Positions 19,832 to 45,424 of a stretch of 64,000 nucleotides of DNA are shown one piece after another (positions within the stretch are counted from its first letter, which is position 1; every line of letters begins with the position of its first letter). The notes beneath the pieces are model-generated. The model made no database searches, was not told where the DNA came from, and saw nothing but the letters and a program-made list of their open reading frames with translations. The stretch is from Desulfosoma sp. Lineage in GTDB: Bacteria; Desulfobacterota; Syntrophobacteria; Syntrophobacterales; DSM-9756. The position numbers and the translations under genes were made by a program. The stretch covers positions 78,569 to 142,568 of the forward strand of contig JBBFKW010000004.1 of the NCBI GenBank assembly GCA_037481835.1, read 5' to 3'.

Positions 19832-19939
19832 CCCCTCACCCTGCCCTCTCCCCCAAAGGGGGAGAGGGATGTTGCGCACCAGGCAAGCCTGCAACCTTAA
19901 TGACCCTCACCCTGCCCTCTCCCCCAAAGGGGGAGAGGG
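19832..19939 (+). repeat. Two direct copies of CCCTCACCCTGCCCTCTCCCCCAAAGGGGGAGAGGG palindromic element
   Basis: Copies start at 19833 and 19904 (71-bp period); the same element seeds the array at 43366-44121. Confidence 0.85.
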
Positions 19940-30484: not shown

Positions 30485-31159
30485 ATGGCAGGATCTTCTC
30501 TTCCCATTCCCGAATCGGAACTGCGGCAGTGGATCGCCGCAGCCGTGGGGGACCTTTTCCAGGAAAAGCTGGACCAGCTCTTTTCGGAAAAAGTGGCGGC
30601 CTTTGTGGCGGAAAACGAACGGCGCGCCCGGGAACTGTCCCTTATGGAGCGGGTCGTTCGCGTGGAAGAGGAGCTCAAAGCCCTCAGGGAAATCGAAGCG
30701 GCCCGCTTTGACGCCTCGGAGAAGCGTTTCGAGGCGTTGCAGCGGGAGATGATCGCGCGCTTCGAAGCCATGGACAAACGGTTTGAGGCCTCGGAAAAGC
30801 GCATCGAGGCGCTGCAGCGGGAGATGATCGCGCGGTTCGAAGCCATGGACAAACGTTTCGAGGCCGTGGAGAAACGCTTCGAAGCCTTGCAGCGGGAGAT
30901 GGCCGCGCGATTCGAGGCGGTGGATAAGCGATTTGAGGCCATGAACGAACGTTTTGTGGCCATGGACCAGCGTTTTGTCGCCATGGACCAGCGTTTCGTG
31001 GCCATGGACCAGCGTTTTGTCGCCATGGGCGAGCGTTTCGTCGCCATCGAAAGGCGCTTCGAAGCCATGGACAAGCGGTTTTCCGTCTTGCAGTGGACAA
31101 TCGGCATCGGCTTTTCCATCCTCGCCATCCTCATTGGTCTCATTCGGCTTCACCCTTGA
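30485..31159 (+). CDS. Membrane-anchored coiled-coil repeat protein (DUF1640/CCDC90-like architecture)
   Basis: Tandem RFEAMDK / RFVAMDQ heptads and a C-terminal TM helix; GGAGG before ATG 30485. Confidence 0.75.
   Translation: MAGSSLPIPESELRQWIAAAVGDLFQEKLDQLFSEKVAAFVAENERRARELSLMERVVRVEEELKALREIEAARFDASEKRFEALQREMIARFEAMDKRFEASEKRIEALQREMIARFEAMDKRFEAVEKRFEALQREMAARFEAVDKRFEAMNERFVAMDQRFVAMDQRFVAMDQRFVAMGERFVAIERRFEAMDKRFSVLQWTIGIGFSILAILIGLIRLHP
30700..31080 (+). repeat. Intragenic 21-bp-based tandem repeats
   Basis: GCCATGGACCAGCGTTTTGTC-type units in tandem, plus longer repeated ALQREMIARFEA blocks. Confidence 0.85.
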
Positions 31160-41275: not shown

Positions 41276-42862
41276 TCAGGCACCGAGGATGGGCCGGATG
41301 GGGACTTTGCCGGCCAGGAAGGCCTTGACGGCGCTGATGGGCACTTCCCTTCGGTGGAAGATGCCTGCGGCCAGGGCCGATTCCGCCCGCGTTCGCGTGA
41401 AGACTTCCAGGAAGTGTTCCGCGCAGCCGGCGCCGCTGGAAGCGATCACCGGAATGCTCACGGCGTCTTTGACGGCGTTGATGAGTTCCAGGTCGAATCC
41501 GGCGTTGGTGCCGTCCCGGTCGATGCAATTGAGAAGAATTTCCCCCGCGCCCAGCTCCTGGCACACCAGCGCCAGGGTCACGGCGTCCACGGGCCGGCCT
41601 TCCCGGCCTCCTTTGACGGTGCACTGGTACCAGCACCAGCGTTCGCCGTTCGGCCCGGGATAGGCGGTTTCCAGGACCCGGTGCGGCACGGCCTGGGGAC
41701 TCGGCACGTAGACCCTTCGCGGGTCGATGGAAATGACCACGGCCTGGCTGCCGTAAACCCGGGAAATCGTCTCGACGGCGCTGTGCCCGCTCTTCTTTCC
41801 CGTGCGGAGCACCTCTTCCACGATGCGCACGGCGTCGCTTCCGATGGAAATCTTGTCAGCCCCGGAACGGAAATATTCTGAAGCCACTTCCAGGGCGGTG
41901 TAAGCCGTCCCGTCTTGGTCCACGTAGTCCCGGATGCCGCCGCCGATGGTCAGGGGAACGAAGACGTTTTCCGACGTCCGGCGAAGCACTTCCAGCATGG
42001 GCAAGTCTTTCAAGGGAAAATCGCGAAAGCCCGTGATGTTGAGAAAGGTGATTTCATCGGCCCCTTCTTCGTAGTAGCGCCGGGCGAGCTCCACGGGCTT
42101 TCCCAGATTGCGCACCGTCCCCCTTTCCCGAACGTCGTAGCGGTCGCCCTTGGTCACCACAAGGTCGCCCTGATCGTTGGTGCGCACATCCAGGCAGGCG
42201 ATGATGCGCTTGGCCAGTTCCGTCTTGGAAGGCGTTCGAGGCGGCCGAACGGGCGGGGCATCCATGCCTTCGAGAAAATTCTTCAGGATCGCCAGCCCCG
42301 TGGGGCCGCTTTTTTCGGGGTGGAACTGGACCGCCGCCACCCGCCCCTTCTGGACGGCGCTCACGAATTCCAGACCGTAGTCCGTGGTCGTGAGCACCAC
42401 CGACGGATCTTCCGGGACCACGTGGAAGGAATGGACGAAGTAGACCTTTTCGTCGCCTTCCAGGCCTCCAAAGAGCGCCGACGGTTTCTGCGGCTTGATG
42501 CCGTTCCAGCCGATGTGCGGCACGGCCAGATCCACCCGAAACCGGCGGACCGTCCCTTCGAGGAACCCGATCCCGTCTTCGCCGGGAGCCTCCTCGCTTC
42601 CCTGGAAAAGGGCCTGCAGCCCCAGGCAGATACCCAGGAAAGGCCGGTCCGCCTCCAGATAGCGGCGAAGGGGTTCCACGAAGCCTCGACGGCGAAGGAC
42701 GCGCATCATTTCTCCGAACGCCCCCACGCCGGGGAAAATGAGCCTTTCCGCCGAAAGGATATCTTCCGGGCGGGTGACGAACCGCACCGTATAGCCGAGG
42801 CGCTGCACGGCATTGACGACGCTCCGCACGTTTCCGGCTCCGTAGTCGAGCACAGTCACCAT
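41276..42862 (-). CDS. hisF: Fused imidazole-glycerol-phosphate synthase HisH-HisF
   Basis: DYGAGN, GICLG, QFHPEKS (HisH); then RIIACLDV, NLGKPV, GADEITFL, GGGIR, IDRDGT (HisF), all in one 528-aa ORF. Confidence 0.93.
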   Translation of the reverse strand: MVTVLDYGAGNVRSVVNAVQRLGYTVRFVTRPEDILSAERLIFPGVGAFGEMMRVLRRRGFVEPLRRYLEADRPFLGICLGLQALFQGSEEAPGEDGIGFLEGTVRRFRVDLAVPHIGWNGIKPQKPSALFGGLEGDEKVYFVHSFHVVPEDPSVVLTTTDYGLEFVSAVQKGRVAAVQFHPEKSGPTGLAILKNFLEGMDAPPVRPPRTPSKTELAKRIIACLDVRTNDQGDLVVTKGDRYDVRERGTVRNLGKPVELARRYYEEGADEITFLNITGFRDFPLKDLPMLEVLRRTSENVFVPLTIGGGIRDYVDQDGTAYTALEVASEYFRSGADKISIGSDAVRIVEEVLRTGKKSGHSAVETISRVYGSQAVVISIDPRRVYVPSPQAVPHRVLETAYPGPNGERWCWYQCTVKGGREGRPVDAVTLALVCQELGAGEILLNCIDRDGTNAGFDLELINAVKDAVSIPVIASSGAGCAEHFLEVFTRTRAESALAAGIFHRREVPISAVKAFLAGKVPIRPILGA

Positions 42863-42878
42863 GAAGGGAAAGCCTCCT

Positions 42879-44426
42879 TTAGGGGTGGATCATCGGCATG
42901 AGCGCTTGAGGCCGGTCCGTGATGACGGCCGAAACGCCCCATGCCTTGAGCTGCTTCAGCCTTTCGGGATCATTGACCGTCCAGGCGATCAGGGGAATGC
43001 CCGCCGCCTGGCATCGGCGGACGAGGGCTTCGGATATTTTTCCGTCCGCGGGGTGCAGGGTATCGGCGTTCACGGCGCGGATCAAGGCCTCCGGATCGTC
43101 GATGGTTTCCTGCGTCAAGACGCCCGTGAGGATCCGCGGGTCCAGGCTCTTGAGTCGGCGAAGGACGTCGTGGTGAAAGGACGAGACGAGAACCCATGCG
43201 TGCATCTCGAGATCGGAGATGAGCCTTGCGGTTTCTCGGACGAGGCGGTCGTGGTGGTCGGGGTGCCCCTTGATCTCCACATTGACCGGCCAGTTCAGAG
43301 CCCGGGTGAATAATAGGGCCTCGCGCAGGGTGGGGATGCGGGCGGGGGGAGGGGGGGCGTTTTCACCCCTCACCCCGGCCCTCTCCCCTAAAGGGGAGAG
43401 GGGGGACGGGACGGATCTCTCCCCTAAAGGGGAGAGGGAGGACCGGATGGATGTCTCCCGGAAAGGGGAGAGGGAGGACGGGGGGCTTGTCTCCCCTGCA
43501 AGGGACAGGGAGCATTGGGGAAGTGTCTCCCTTAACAGGGACAAGGGGTAGTGGCACTGTGTCGTCCTTGCATGGGAAAGGGAGCGCCGGGGATGGGCAT
43601 CCCTCGGAGGGGCGGTAAATGCCAGGGCCTCGCGCAGGGTGGGGATGCGGGCGGGGGAAGGGGGGGCGTTTTCACCCCTCACCCCGGCCCTCTCCCCTGA
43701 AGGGGAGAGGGGGTCCTGGATGGATCTCTCCCCGAAAGGGGAGAGGGGGTCCTGGATGGTTCTCTCGCCTAATGGTGAGAGGGGGGACGGGATGGATGTC
43801 TCACCTAAAGGGGAGAGGGAGGACGGGGGGCTTGTCTCCCCTAAGGGGGAGAGGAAGAATTGGCGGAGTGTCTCGCCCAAAGGAGAGAGGGAACACTGGG
43901 GCAATGTGTCCCCTAAAGGCGAGAGGAAGAATTGGCGGAGTATCTCGCCTAAAAGGGTAAGGGAGAAGTGGGGGAGTGTCTCCCCTAAGGGGGGCAGGGA
44001 GCGCTGGGGGAGTTTCTCCCGTAAGGGAAAGAGGGAGGAGTGGCGGAGTGTCTCCCTTAGAGGGGAGGGGGCGCAGTGGGGCTGTGTCGGCCTTGCCTGG
44101 GAAAGGGAGCGCCGGGGATGGGCATCCCTCGGGGAGGCGAGGGGGCGGAGCGGCCGGATTTCTTCCCACAGGAAATCCCGAACGCGCCACGGCTTCCGAT
44201 CCGGATAGAGCTCGGCGGCGTCGGTCGTTCTTTCCAAGGTGTCGTCGTGGATCACCACGGGGATGTCGTCCTTGGAAAGCTGCACGTCCAGTTCCCAGAA
44301 ATGGGCCCCGGTCAAGTACCCCAGGGCGGCCGTTTCCAGAGTGTTTTCAGGGCCCAGGTCCCGGCCCCCCCTGTGCGCCCCCACCCAGAAAACCCCTCCG
44401 GCTCTAAGATCCGCCCATCGCTTCAT
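42879..44426 (-). CDS. Glycerophosphodiester phosphodiesterase-family protein carrying a large in-frame repeat insertion
   Basis: AHRGG, PENT, ELDV, HDDTLERTT, IPTLRE, NVEIK, SSF, WTVN, VITDRP; ATGA overlap with the upstream gene. Confidence 0.85.
   Translation of the reverse strand: MKRWADLRAGGVFWVGAHRGGRDLGPENTLETAALGYLTGAHFWELDVQLSKDDIPVVIHDDTLERTTDAAELYPDRKPWRVRDFLWEEIRPLRPLASPRDAHPRRSLSQARPTQPHCAPSPLRETLRHSSLFPLREKLPQRSLPPLGETLPHFSLTLLGEILRQFFLSPLGDTLPQCSLSPLGETLRQFFLSPLGETSPPSSLSPLGETSIPSPLSPLGERTIQDPLSPFGERSIQDPLSPSGERAGVRGENAPPSPARIPTLREALAFTAPPRDAHPRRSLSHARTTQCHYPLSLLRETLPQCSLSLAGETSPPSSLSPFRETSIRSSLSPLGERSVPSPLSPLGERAGVRGENAPPPPARIPTLREALLFTRALNWPVNVEIKGHPDHHDRLVRETARLISDLEMHAWVLVSSFHHDVLRRLKSLDPRILTGVLTQETIDDPEALIRAVNADTLHPADGKISEALVRRCQAAGIPLIAWTVNDPERLKQLKAWGVSAVITDRPQALMPMIHP
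43366..44121. repeat. Two tandem arrays (6 and 12 units) of 36-bp palindrome-plus-linker units
   Basis: Core about CTCTCCCCTAAAGGGGAGAG at 43381+36n (n=0-5) and 43690+36n (n=0-11). Confidence 0.92.
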
Positions 44427-45424
44427 GGGCCTCCTCTGTCCGGGTGCGGCTCCCGGAGCCGTTCCAGCAGGGCGCACACGCTGCAGCGGGTCCCGTAACA
44501 GGGTTCGCCGCACCGGTCGCACGTGCCGAAATCATCCACAACTTTCGGGGCCGACCTCGCATCCAGGTAGGCGAAAAGAAAGTCCCTCTTGGTTCCCGGC
44601 ATTTTGCCTTCCAGCATGTCCAGGGCTTCTTTGAACATGTGGCTTGTGGCGCCGCGGGACAGAGGGCAGGCTCCTTCCACGTAAGCAATCCCTTCCACCC
44701 GGCAGTAGGTGCGGATTTCGTCGGCCGAAACGCGATAGAGCGGCTTGATTTTTTCCGGGAGCTTCGGATGGACGGACGGCAGATAGGGAGATTGCTTTTC
44801 GATGTATTCCCGTCGGTTTCGCACGAGGTTTCCCAGAAGCCTTCCGGCTTCGTCGTCCAGGTTGTGGCCCGTGGCGATCACGCGCAGCCCCTCGCGGATG
44901 GTGAGGCGGTTCAGGAGGCGGCGCTTGATCATGCCGCACACGGAACAGATGGGACGCCGGATGCGCCGCCGAATCTCGGGGATGGAGAAGCCCAGCAGGT
45001 CCCGGAGGGAATAGCTCACCCACGGGAGGTTCCGTGCCTCGGCAAAGGCGGCGATGGCGTCCTGCGACGCATCGGAAAAGGCCGGGATGCCGAGATTCAG
45101 GTGGACACCCCGGGTGCGGTAGCCCAAATCCTGCAAAACGGCCCAGGCGGCCAGGGAATCCTTGCCGCCCGAGACGGCCACGAGGATGGGCTCATCGGCC
45201 CTGATGGGAAAATGTTTCATGGCCCGAAGAACCGCCCGGCGAAAGAAAAGAACAAAGCATTCTTCACAGAAATTGGCATGATGGCTGGGCAGGGCGATGA
45301 CGGCCCGCTTTCGGCATCGCGTGCACTTGGCCGTTTCGGGAAGAAGCCTATGTTCGTGGGGCAGCGTCCTGGGTCCTCGAAAAACGTTCCCCGGAGCCGT
45401 CCCTTCGGGTCGGTTGGCGTCCAT
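44423..45424 (-). CDS. ttuA: TtuA/Ncs6-like tRNA thiolation PP-loop protein
   Basis: N-terminal CTRC/CEEC, SGGKDS, CSVC, GHNLDDE, KPL, CP, and C-terminal CDRC/CSVC zinc fingers. Confidence 0.8.
   Translation of the reverse strand: MDANRPEGTAPGNVFRGPRTLPHEHRLLPETAKCTRCRKRAVIALPSHHANFCEECFVLFFRRAVLRAMKHFPIRADEPILVAVSGGKDSLAAWAVLQDLGYRTRGVHLNLGIPAFSDASQDAIAAFAEARNLPWVSYSLRDLLGFSIPEIRRRIRRPICSVCGMIKRRLLNRLTIREGLRVIATGHNLDDEAGRLLGNLVRNRREYIEKQSPYLPSVHPKLPEKIKPLYRVSADEIRTYCRVEGIAYVEGACPLSRGATSHMFKEALDMLEGKMPGTKRDFLFAYLDARSAPKVVDDFGTCDRCGEPCYGTRCSVCALLERLREPHPDRGGP

Follow-up and report, generated by a model that had tools for sequence, protein, structure and literature searches.

A 64,000-nt stretch of the Desulfosoma sp. 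assembly GCA_037481835.1 (contig JBBFKW010000004.1, positions 78,569 to 142,568 of the forward strand; hereafter the window, in which coordinates without a contig prefix are counted) contains a gene of the glycerophosphodiester phosphodiesterase (GDPD) family whose middle is occupied by two blocks of 36-bp hairpin units. Judging from the comparisons presented here, it is quite likely that a solo copy of BoxC/PIT/TM_ECO, a published intrastrand triplex motif (TM), lying in sense orientation in a naturally length-variable loop of the enzyme, seeded a one-sided 36-bp array by a process common to other TMs. Comparison of the present-day units shows head-to-tail copying of the 36-bp unit on the C-arm side of the motif, followed by tandem duplication of a 309-bp segment and then by gains of whole units. 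About two dozen arrays at other TMs of this genome stem from the same one-sided process.

A published triplex motif at the head of both blocks

Both blocks open with the same 36-bp element, made up of a C-rich head, CCCTCTCCCC, a loop, and GGGGAGAGG. The first-pass annotation took this element for a REP-like repeat, but both heads match exactly, on the minus strand (the sense strand of the gene) and with a type B loop (CCG), the pattern CCCTCNCCC-N3-6-GGGNGAGGG-N3-GGGNGAGGG that the main text of Holder et al. 2015 (PMC4666352) gives for TM_ECO, earlier called BoxC or PIT. The first complete motif, TM-A (43366..43402, minus strand), reads C-arm, loop TTTA, G-arm 1, CCG, and G-arm 2, and the second, TM-B (43675..43711, minus strand), is identical to unit A1 at 35 of 36 positions. 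On sequence grounds, the head of each GDPD block is the known triplex motif and not a new repeat.

In its main text, the same study (PMC4666352) reports 3610 TM_ECO copies across 262 proteobacterial genomes, with very uneven copy numbers among close relatives, and states that the motif is always intergenic in E. coli MG1655 and is not linked to mobile elements. The flanks of the motif are described there as having raised variability, for which replication slippage is discussed, and the triplex as stable in vitro, with no evidence in vivo (PMC4666352). For the GDPD units only hairpin energies were computed, triplex formation having been shown for the E. coli motif in vitro. The GDPD heads share with TM_ECO the pattern, the multi-copy nature, a patchy distribution among close relatives, an association with local instability, and the lack of a transposase. 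Unlike the always intergenic motifs of E. coli MG1655, copies here are found in frame within genes, and in a Desulfosoma-like genome.

The genome under study (G000) contains 49 exact matches to the TM pattern, compared to none for a reversed-pattern control, and a looser pattern finds 59 sites, so that the motif is present in many near-identical copies beyond chance expectation. The exact pattern is absent from three genomes of the same genus (G001, G002, and G003), and TMs occur in only three of 40 related genomes, with one to three copies each. A scan of one genome per species recovered the head motif in at least 125 stretches, with an identical asymmetric architecture throughout. Among the matches listed, and going by record title, these belong to Alpha-, Beta-, and Gammaproteobacteria, Planctomycetota, Verrucomicrobia, Acidobacteriota, Myxococcota, Nitrospirota, Chloroflexota, and Omnitrophota. 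No Rfam family reached its gathering score over 42800-44600; the best match was whalefall-1 (25.9 bits vs. a cut-off of 37), and the rest were chance matches to microRNA-like hairpins.

Anatomy and polarity of the array

Hairpin units adjoin each TM on its C-arm (outer) side. Units 2-6 of block A and a decayed seventh unit (43582-43617) lie at 43402..43617, and units 2-12 of block B and a decayed thirteenth (44107-44142) at 43711..44142, all on the minus strand; the block A units measure 36 bp each, a hairpin plus a linker of 15-16 nt. Counted with their heads, block A has six clear units (43366-43581), its decayed seventh reaching 43617, and block B has twelve (43675-44106), its decayed thirteenth reaching 44142. 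The 18 units that the first-pass annotation had placed at an exact 36-bp period (6 + 12) were borne out both by direct reading, in which the sequence cut in 36-bp steps stayed in register in both blocks with no indel, and by Tandem Repeats Finder, which returned a period of 36 for block A (3.6 copies, 82% matches, 0% indels) and block B (10.6 copies, 72% matches, 1% indels). Pairwise, the units are identical at 18-33 of 36 positions. The copied 36-bp unit consists of the C-arm, the loop, the first 8-9 nt of G-arm 1, and about 15 nt of flank, and it encodes a 12-aa repeat, e.g. LSPLGERSVPSP or LSPLGETLPQCS, in a low-complexity peptide rich in Pro, Ser, Leu, and Gly. A CRISPR array was rejected, as there are no spacers between adjoining units and the linkers of different units are homologous. 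The genome does have two CRISPR-like arrays elsewhere (C12:27380-33575 and C20:414-10596), with other repeats, of 36-37 nt, at a period of about 72 bp, and these bear no relation to the TM arrays.

The units decay with growing distance from the intact head, as had been proposed. Mismatches to the hairpin consensus rise in block A (0, 0, 2, 3, 5) and in block B (0, 0, 2, 2, 1, 3, 3, 3, 4, 3), and the hairpin minimum free energy weakens from about -24 kcal/mol near the head to between -5 and -10 kcal/mol distally.

Aligning 43290-43640 against 43599-44170 revealed that the two blocks belong to a tandem segmental duplication. Copy 1 (309 bp, 43315..43623, +/-10 bp) comprises the gene flank coding for ..PARIPTLREAL.., TM-A, block A, and a shared distal end, and copy 2 (43624..44148) is about 525 bp long, that is, 309 + 6 x 36 bp, and contains a second, internal PARIPTLREAL-coding stretch. 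This peptide is encoded twice, once within the insert, since the flank of the gene was duplicated too. Flank and head are nearly identical between the copies, and the distal 72 bp are identical at 61 of 72 positions. Besides A1 and B1, the units that correspond are A2 and B4 (33/36 identical), A4 and B5 (31/36), A5 and B9 (28/36), A6 and B12 (30/36), and A7 and B13 (31/36).

Growth from one end, as first proposed, does not accommodate all of these observations. In block B, units without a counterpart in block A occupy three interior places (B2-B3, B6-B8, and B10-B11). A contig of a related strain (run X3, see below) diverges from the reference past 43479 and contains an A3-like unit a second time, so that a whole unit has been gained at the third unit. 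Taken together, the interior extra units and this strain variant exclude strict terminal addition. Furthermore, the identity between blocks A and B drops from 35/36 near the head to 28-31/36 distally, a gradient that a single duplication date does not explain, and the apparent polarity may alternatively stem from gene conversion close to the head. Local and polar amplification is therefore retained from the earlier proposal, and its restriction to one end is not, given the 309-bp duplication, the interior units, and the extra third unit in the strain. As read from the unit alignments, growth of the GDPD array is polar as a trend and not strictly terminal.

The GDPD gene and the position of the insert

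The host gene (42879..44426, minus strand, with the ATG at 44426 and the stop codon at 42879-42881) was identified from the open reading frame (ORF) list and by its match to Pfam PF03009, and encodes 515 aa. The profile match (E 2.3e-40) is split in two stretches. In a 10-sequence alignment, the invariant catalytic-type residues of GDPD are H18, R19, E45, D47, H60, D61, E384, K386, and W482, and the PF03009 match and the conserved His, Arg, Glu, Asp, and Lys residues place the protein in the GDPD family. The N-terminal half of the TIM barrel (residues 1-104; 44115..44426, minus strand) ends past HDDTLERTT and the start of the variable GDPD-insertion region and is 51-68% identical to orthologues of the same genus. 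The C-terminal half (residues 355-515; 42882..43364, minus strand) begins at ARIPTLREAL and is 51-56% identical to these orthologues; its nearest named relative, in a metagenome-assembled genome (MAG) of an uncultured Desulfosoma sp., shares 58% identity. Between the two halves lies the lineage-specific insert (residues 105-354; 43365..44114, minus strand), which is composed of the TM elements, the hairpin units, and the duplicated piece of gene flank, and is mostly predicted to be disordered. The insert is flanked by the HDDTLERTT and IPTLREAL motifs, confirming the earlier placement between HDxTLxRTT and IPTLxE, a position that we take to be the variable 'GDPD-insertion' sub-domain of the family.

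An AlphaFold2 model of the 515-aa protein, built on the same 10-sequence alignment, gave a predicted local distance difference test (pLDDT) score of about 80-96 for residues 1-100 and 90-97 for the C-terminal half, with values around 90 over most of residues 11-100 and 361-510, which are the two barrel halves. Scores were below 50 for residues 105-154 and 172-354. With an intact set of catalytic-type residues and two confidently modeled halves, the array-bearing GDPD gene looks functional.

GDPD genes were found in 29 of the 40 relatives (30 of 41 genomes including the one under study). The orthologues measure about 280-320 aa, with the first upstream ATG in frame, if there was one, taken as the start, in agreement with the earlier statement that the enzyme had been roughly doubled to 515 aa. 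Those of G001 and G002, from the same genus, lack the insert, and more distant family members have only a short linker at this site. The G003 orthologue contains an unrelated stretch of about 90 aa there; it was considered as a relic array and rejected (best blastn E 0.35, no tandem period), and we treat it as unrelated or undetectable. Downstream of the GDPD gene, a 528-aa ORF (41276-42862, minus strand) resembles, going by its translation, a fused HisH-HisF imidazole glycerol phosphate synthase.

Support in public sequence data and strain variation

Contigs of four public runs (X1-X4) from three studies, compared with 43100-44400, tile the array. The best-matching run may be the source sample. 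Run X1 provides overlapping, 100%-identical pieces over nearly all of this interval, and run X2, from a second study, identical pieces at 43468-43602 and 43823-44127. Runs X3 and X4, from the third study, represent a related strain in which 34 of the 39 listed differences fall within 43346-43968, that is, in the array and the adjoining duplicated flank. No small indels are listed in the array contigs of any of the four runs. Mis-assembly of repeats could in principle have produced such an array, and the short-read contigs do break within it in all four runs. Still, the units are mutually distinct, as their 18-33 of 36 identical positions attest, and identical or variant pieces recur in all four runs across three studies, which makes the probability of an assembly artefact next to negligible.

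Reading frame and encoded peptide

The array had been described as in frame, with no stop, no indel, and 12-aa repeats, and this description stands: over the 777 bp of 43366-44142 the gene frame contains no stop codon, and the other five frames contain 1, 2, 2, 12, and 13. The open frame as such is less telling than it may seem. Neutral simulation from the unit consensus gave a mean of 1.66 stops and a probability of 0.18 for none, a result that weighs against reading much into it; together with the three other frames that have only one or two stops, it means that the absence of stops alone proves little. The absence of indels is a different matter. The GDPD array has none in about 650 bp of slippage-prone repeats at a mean unit divergence of 22%, whereas sister arrays of similar divergence (68-79% matches) have 1-13% indels, with at least 2% in 11 of 14. 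Among 13 other TM or array intervals of at least 250 bp, 11 have stops in all six frames and two have a single open frame each, i.e. two open frames of 78. From these comparisons, selection keeping the reading frame of the GDPD gene is plausible.

Signs of constraint on the peptide were sought in the same units. Column entropy by codon position is 0.75/0.95/0.75, with no excess at the third codon position in the array units, and codon differences from the consensus comprise 24 synonymous and 73 non-synonymous changes. Judged by these substitution patterns and the AlphaFold2 model, there is no sign of selection on the encoded peptide, and the selection that can be recognized acts on the reading frame only. 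We infer that the 12-aa repeats form an unconstrained, disordered loop and not a new functional domain. The earlier view of a new protein repeat under selection for frame is thus upheld for the frame, plausibly so given the zero indels, and not for the peptide, in view of the entropy, the codon differences, and the pLDDT scores. It had also been suggested that the gene might be a contingency locus, which does not fit: the unit is 36 bp (3 x 12 bp, or 12 codons) and only whole-unit variants occur, meaning that the array cannot switch the gene on or off by frameshift.

These data bear on two further readings of the gene. That the 12-aa repeats are a selected domain or linker, for instance with a role in localisation or regulation and with a copy number tuned by selection, would be supported by the open, indel-free frame over 777 bp and the presence of the array in several populations. 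However, the lack of a third-position excess in entropy, the surplus of non-synonymous changes, the pLDDT below 50, and the same-genus orthologues in G001 and G002 without the insert all argue against this, as do the concentration of differences in 43346-43968 in the two related populations and the ability of the TM element to make non-coding arrays genome-wide, and we consider an adaptive repeat quite improbable. The opposite view, in which the insertion killed the GDPD and the open frame is a leftover in a decaying pseudogene, draws on the position of the insert in the middle of the barrel sequence. It is very improbable, because all catalytic-type residues are kept, both barrel halves are modeled at pLDDT above 90, and the array is free of indels at a divergence at which its sister arrays have them; moreover, the strain variants consist of substitutions and whole units only, and a search with this query found no second GDPD match in the genome.

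One-sided arrays at TMs across the genome

The arrangement seen in the GDPD gene recurs at other TMs. At least one extra hairpin unit lies on the C-arm side in 44 of the 59 TM sites, at least three in 29, and at least four in 23. Over all 59 sites, 202 hairpin units are on the C-arm side, compared to 28 on the third-arm side, most of which belong to a neighbouring TM. Linker and period are specific to each array, with periods from 28 to 90 bp, from which it follows that the units are made on the spot and are not re-inserted copies. The farther a unit lies from the TM, the more mismatches it has: this trend holds in 21 of 23 arrays with the TM itself included, and in 18 of 23 without it. Of the remaining five, four are negative and one is flat, the negative ones being arrays whose far end meets a second TM. 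Where an array is well preserved, what its first unit has in common with the TM is the complete C-arm, the loop, and no more than the initial 3-9 nt of G-arm 1; in GDPD block A the figure is 9 nt. The TM-like sites are unevenly distributed, 30 of 59 being located on contig C6 (216 kb) in clusters at 78-125 kb and 166-167 kb around the cassettes described below, which may reflect local spread.

Such arrays are rare at the TM head sites of other genomes. Among 80 sites with enough flanking sequence, 59 have no extra unit, 14 have one, and two have two or more. The clearest TM-anchored array outside this genome among these sites is on a Dokdonella sp. MAG contig, with three extra units at periods of about 43-47 bp. 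Within the genome under study, no association was seen between the strand of a TM and whether local GC skew is positive or negative (Fisher p = 1; the test is weak on contigs). This null result leaves a replication-strand effect unsupported, and the process cannot be tied to leading- or lagging-strand synthesis.

In-frame copies of the element are also found in two other coding sequences. A ComEC gene (C6:165230-169270) has an insert that adds about 440 in-frame residues, encoded by TM pairs and by 30- and 24-bp units, all multiples of three, and situated within or just before the N-terminal DUF4131 region. The insert is missing from three same-genus orthologues with frames of 901 aa; these align to query residues 2-134 and to a second stretch from about 578-602 to 1330, and in these genomes the two aligned parts are within about 80 bp of one another. 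In a family-4-type UDG gene on contig C22, three 90-bp TM copies that are 94% alike (C22:23597-23812) sit in frame, with an N-terminal helix on one side and the catalytic domain on the other. In the UDG of G003 the matches on either side of the copies are directly adjacent, and in G002 and G010 the alignment runs through the TM-copy region, indicating that the length of this linker varies in any case. Every in-frame array has a 3n period, whereas intergenic arrays show no such preference (29, 31, 35, 43, and 44 bp included). Long ORFs over TMs at C1:41986, C5:134140, C9:67068, C10:26510-26986, and C6:116046-116373 have no Pfam match and were not counted as in frame; the array at C6:90214 is upstream of a CCP_MauG domain and may fall outside the real gene.

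Other repeats were noted in passing. The window contains two more complete TMs on the minus strand (19834-19939, equivalent to C4:98402-98507), which are directly repeated and separated by 71 bp. A second, unrelated palindromic family (core GTTGGGGTGAGCG..CCCCAAC) forms short tandem arrays at C8:171001, C10:84156, C12:14695, C12:67572, C13:102193, C14:47298, and C18:49147. In-frame-looking tandem repeats of 21, 42, and 75 bp are located in the window at about 30707-31082 (C4:109275-109650), and tandem repeats with periods of 21, 42, and 84 bp, mostly of other units, on contigs C6, C9, C15, C19, and others; these 21/42/75/84-bp repeats probably encode coiled-coil repeat proteins.

DUF559 cassettes and a possible mechanism

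Amid the TMs of contig C6, two tandem cassettes (C6:77973-79253) each contain a DUF559 ORF (C6:78090-78416 and C6:78873-79199; E 1.5e-39 each, 132-aa frames without internal stops). Both ORFs have a TM in plus orientation on the left and one in minus orientation on the right, with the third arms facing inward, and hairpin arrays lie on both outer sides of the TM-DUF559-TM cassettes. Given these inward-facing third arms, the array-bearing C-arm side of any TM corresponds to the outer end of such a cassette. From this arrangement, TM-DUF559-TM is a candidate for the autonomous form of the repeat, and DUF559 a candidate nuclease. Next to the GDPD copy, a solo TM, there is no DUF559 gene.

It had been suggested to look for the element next to nuclease or transposase genes, and candidate nuclease genes are indeed present in the two DUF559 cassettes. 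Among the 41 ORFs of the TM-dense region of C6 (72-130 kb), compared with Pfam, there is no transposase or other mobility gene; 18 of the 41 have no match, and the rest are housekeeping and Tad-pilus genes. A link to repetitive extragenic palindromic (REP) sequences and their RAYT transposases (REPIN) was likewise rejected, the genome having a single weak Y1_Tnp match (27.9 bits, C8:140941-141240), with the nearest TM on that contig at C8:76245.

How the arrays grow can be outlined in a model. DNA synthesis entering a TM from its outer side would stall a few bases into G-arm 1, either at the hairpin or triplex or at a nick made by the DUF559 nuclease. The nascent end would then re-pair 28-90 nt back and re-copy flank and hairpin, so that new units would arise beside the TM while older ones would be pushed outward and decay. 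Later, slipped-strand mispairing and unequal exchange could lead to gains and losses of interior units and of longer stretches, the 309-bp duplication among them, and in a needed gene only 3n-periodic versions free of stops and indels would persist. One-sided arrays, junctions within G-arm 1, array-specific linkers, and newest-looking units at the TM all fit this model of stalling and re-pairing.

A nuclease could also act more directly than in this model. In that case, the DUF559 protein, which is Vsr-like with a PD-(D/E)XK fold, would nick or cut a fixed place in G-arm 1, and cut-and-repair with out-of-register re-annealing would build the arrays, including that in the GDPD gene. Consistent with this are the two intact ORFs, which lie between inverted TMs and have arrays on either outer flank, the 30 of 59 TM sites that share contig C6 with the cassettes, the unit junctions 3-9 nt into G-arm 1, and the rarity of arrays at the TMs of other genomes (two of 80 sites with two or more extra units). 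In E. coli K-12, TM number 9 of Table 1 in Holder et al. (PMC4666352) lies 166 bp from the DUF559 gene ycjD. However, TMs by the pattern used flank small DUF559 ORFs on both sides in only two of seven genomes (G000 and G021) and on one side in another (G006), the DUF559 genes of the other four being without TM; G021 has six DUF559 copies and no exact TM match; and there is no DUF559 gene near the GDPD copy. On balance, we regard nuclease-driven array formation as possible but doubtful. By title or abstract, no literature linking DUF559 to BoxC was found, and among publications on intrastrand triplexes, BoxC, and tandem repeats only Holder 2015 was relevant.

A broader and more tentative proposal, which we would not rate above a possibility, is that the TM/BoxC motifs are the ends of a selfish cassette with a DUF559 nuclease, and that in this lineage they drive an undescribed directional expansion by template switching in G-arm 1, triggered by a structure or a nick, each event adding one unit of hairpin and flank beside the motif and thus building one-sided arrays genome-wide as well as in-frame disordered segments in GDPD (about 250 aa) and ComEC (about 440 aa).

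Implications and relation to known systems

Although BoxC or triplex motifs were recognized some thirty years ago, neither a mechanism nor a function has to our knowledge been assigned to them, and the sole systematic study linked them to 'instability' in a statistical sense only. The genome described here amounts to a natural experiment in which this instability has a visible and directional outcome. With arrays nearly always on the same side, junctions within one arm, and a candidate nuclease bracketed by TMs, the mechanism becomes testable. At the protein level, a selfish DNA repeat can apparently lengthen working enzymes by hundreds of disordered residues, with selection guarding the frame only, and array-driven inserts of this kind would be one route to new low-complexity protein segments.

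The closest functional parallel may be the Rickettsia palindromic elements (RPEs), which Ogata and colleagues are said to have described in 2000 as in-frame selfish palindromes in surface loops of conserved proteins, absent from orthologues. The GDPD insert resembles them in being in frame in a conserved gene, in being absent from orthologues, and in occupying a tolerant loop. RPEs are reportedly single insertions of about 100-150 bp and not locally growing arrays; the GDPD element, by comparison, belongs to an unrelated sequence family and forms a growing array. The clusters of REP sequences known as bacterial interspersed mosaic elements (BIMEs), and the REPIN-RAYT system reportedly treated by Bertels and Rainey in 2011, are likewise said to consist of short, GC-rich, multi-copy palindromes that are sometimes clustered. 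TM units differ from these in being direct and not alternating and in having array-specific linkers, and no RAYT gene is flanked by TMs. In-frame minisatellites (variable-number tandem repeats) in bacterial genes share with the GDPD array the 3n period, whole-unit strain differences, and a low-complexity peptide. Unlike them, the GDPD array is seeded and polarised by an interspersed element, its peptide is without constraint, and the host is a cytoplasmic-type enzyme and not a surface protein.

Finally, the sections of Holder et al. 2015 (PMC4666352) considered here make no mention of one-sided tandem arrays of hairpin-only units, although the supplementary tables of that study might list intragenic or tandem TM cases. 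Measured against those sections (PMC4666352) and the titles and abstracts searched, three features of the present genome are new, namely the TM-anchored one-sided tandem arrays found genome-wide, the very long in-frame disordered inserts in GDPD and ComEC, and the coexistence of arrays with intact TM-DUF559-TM cassettes in a genome whose congeners are without TM.

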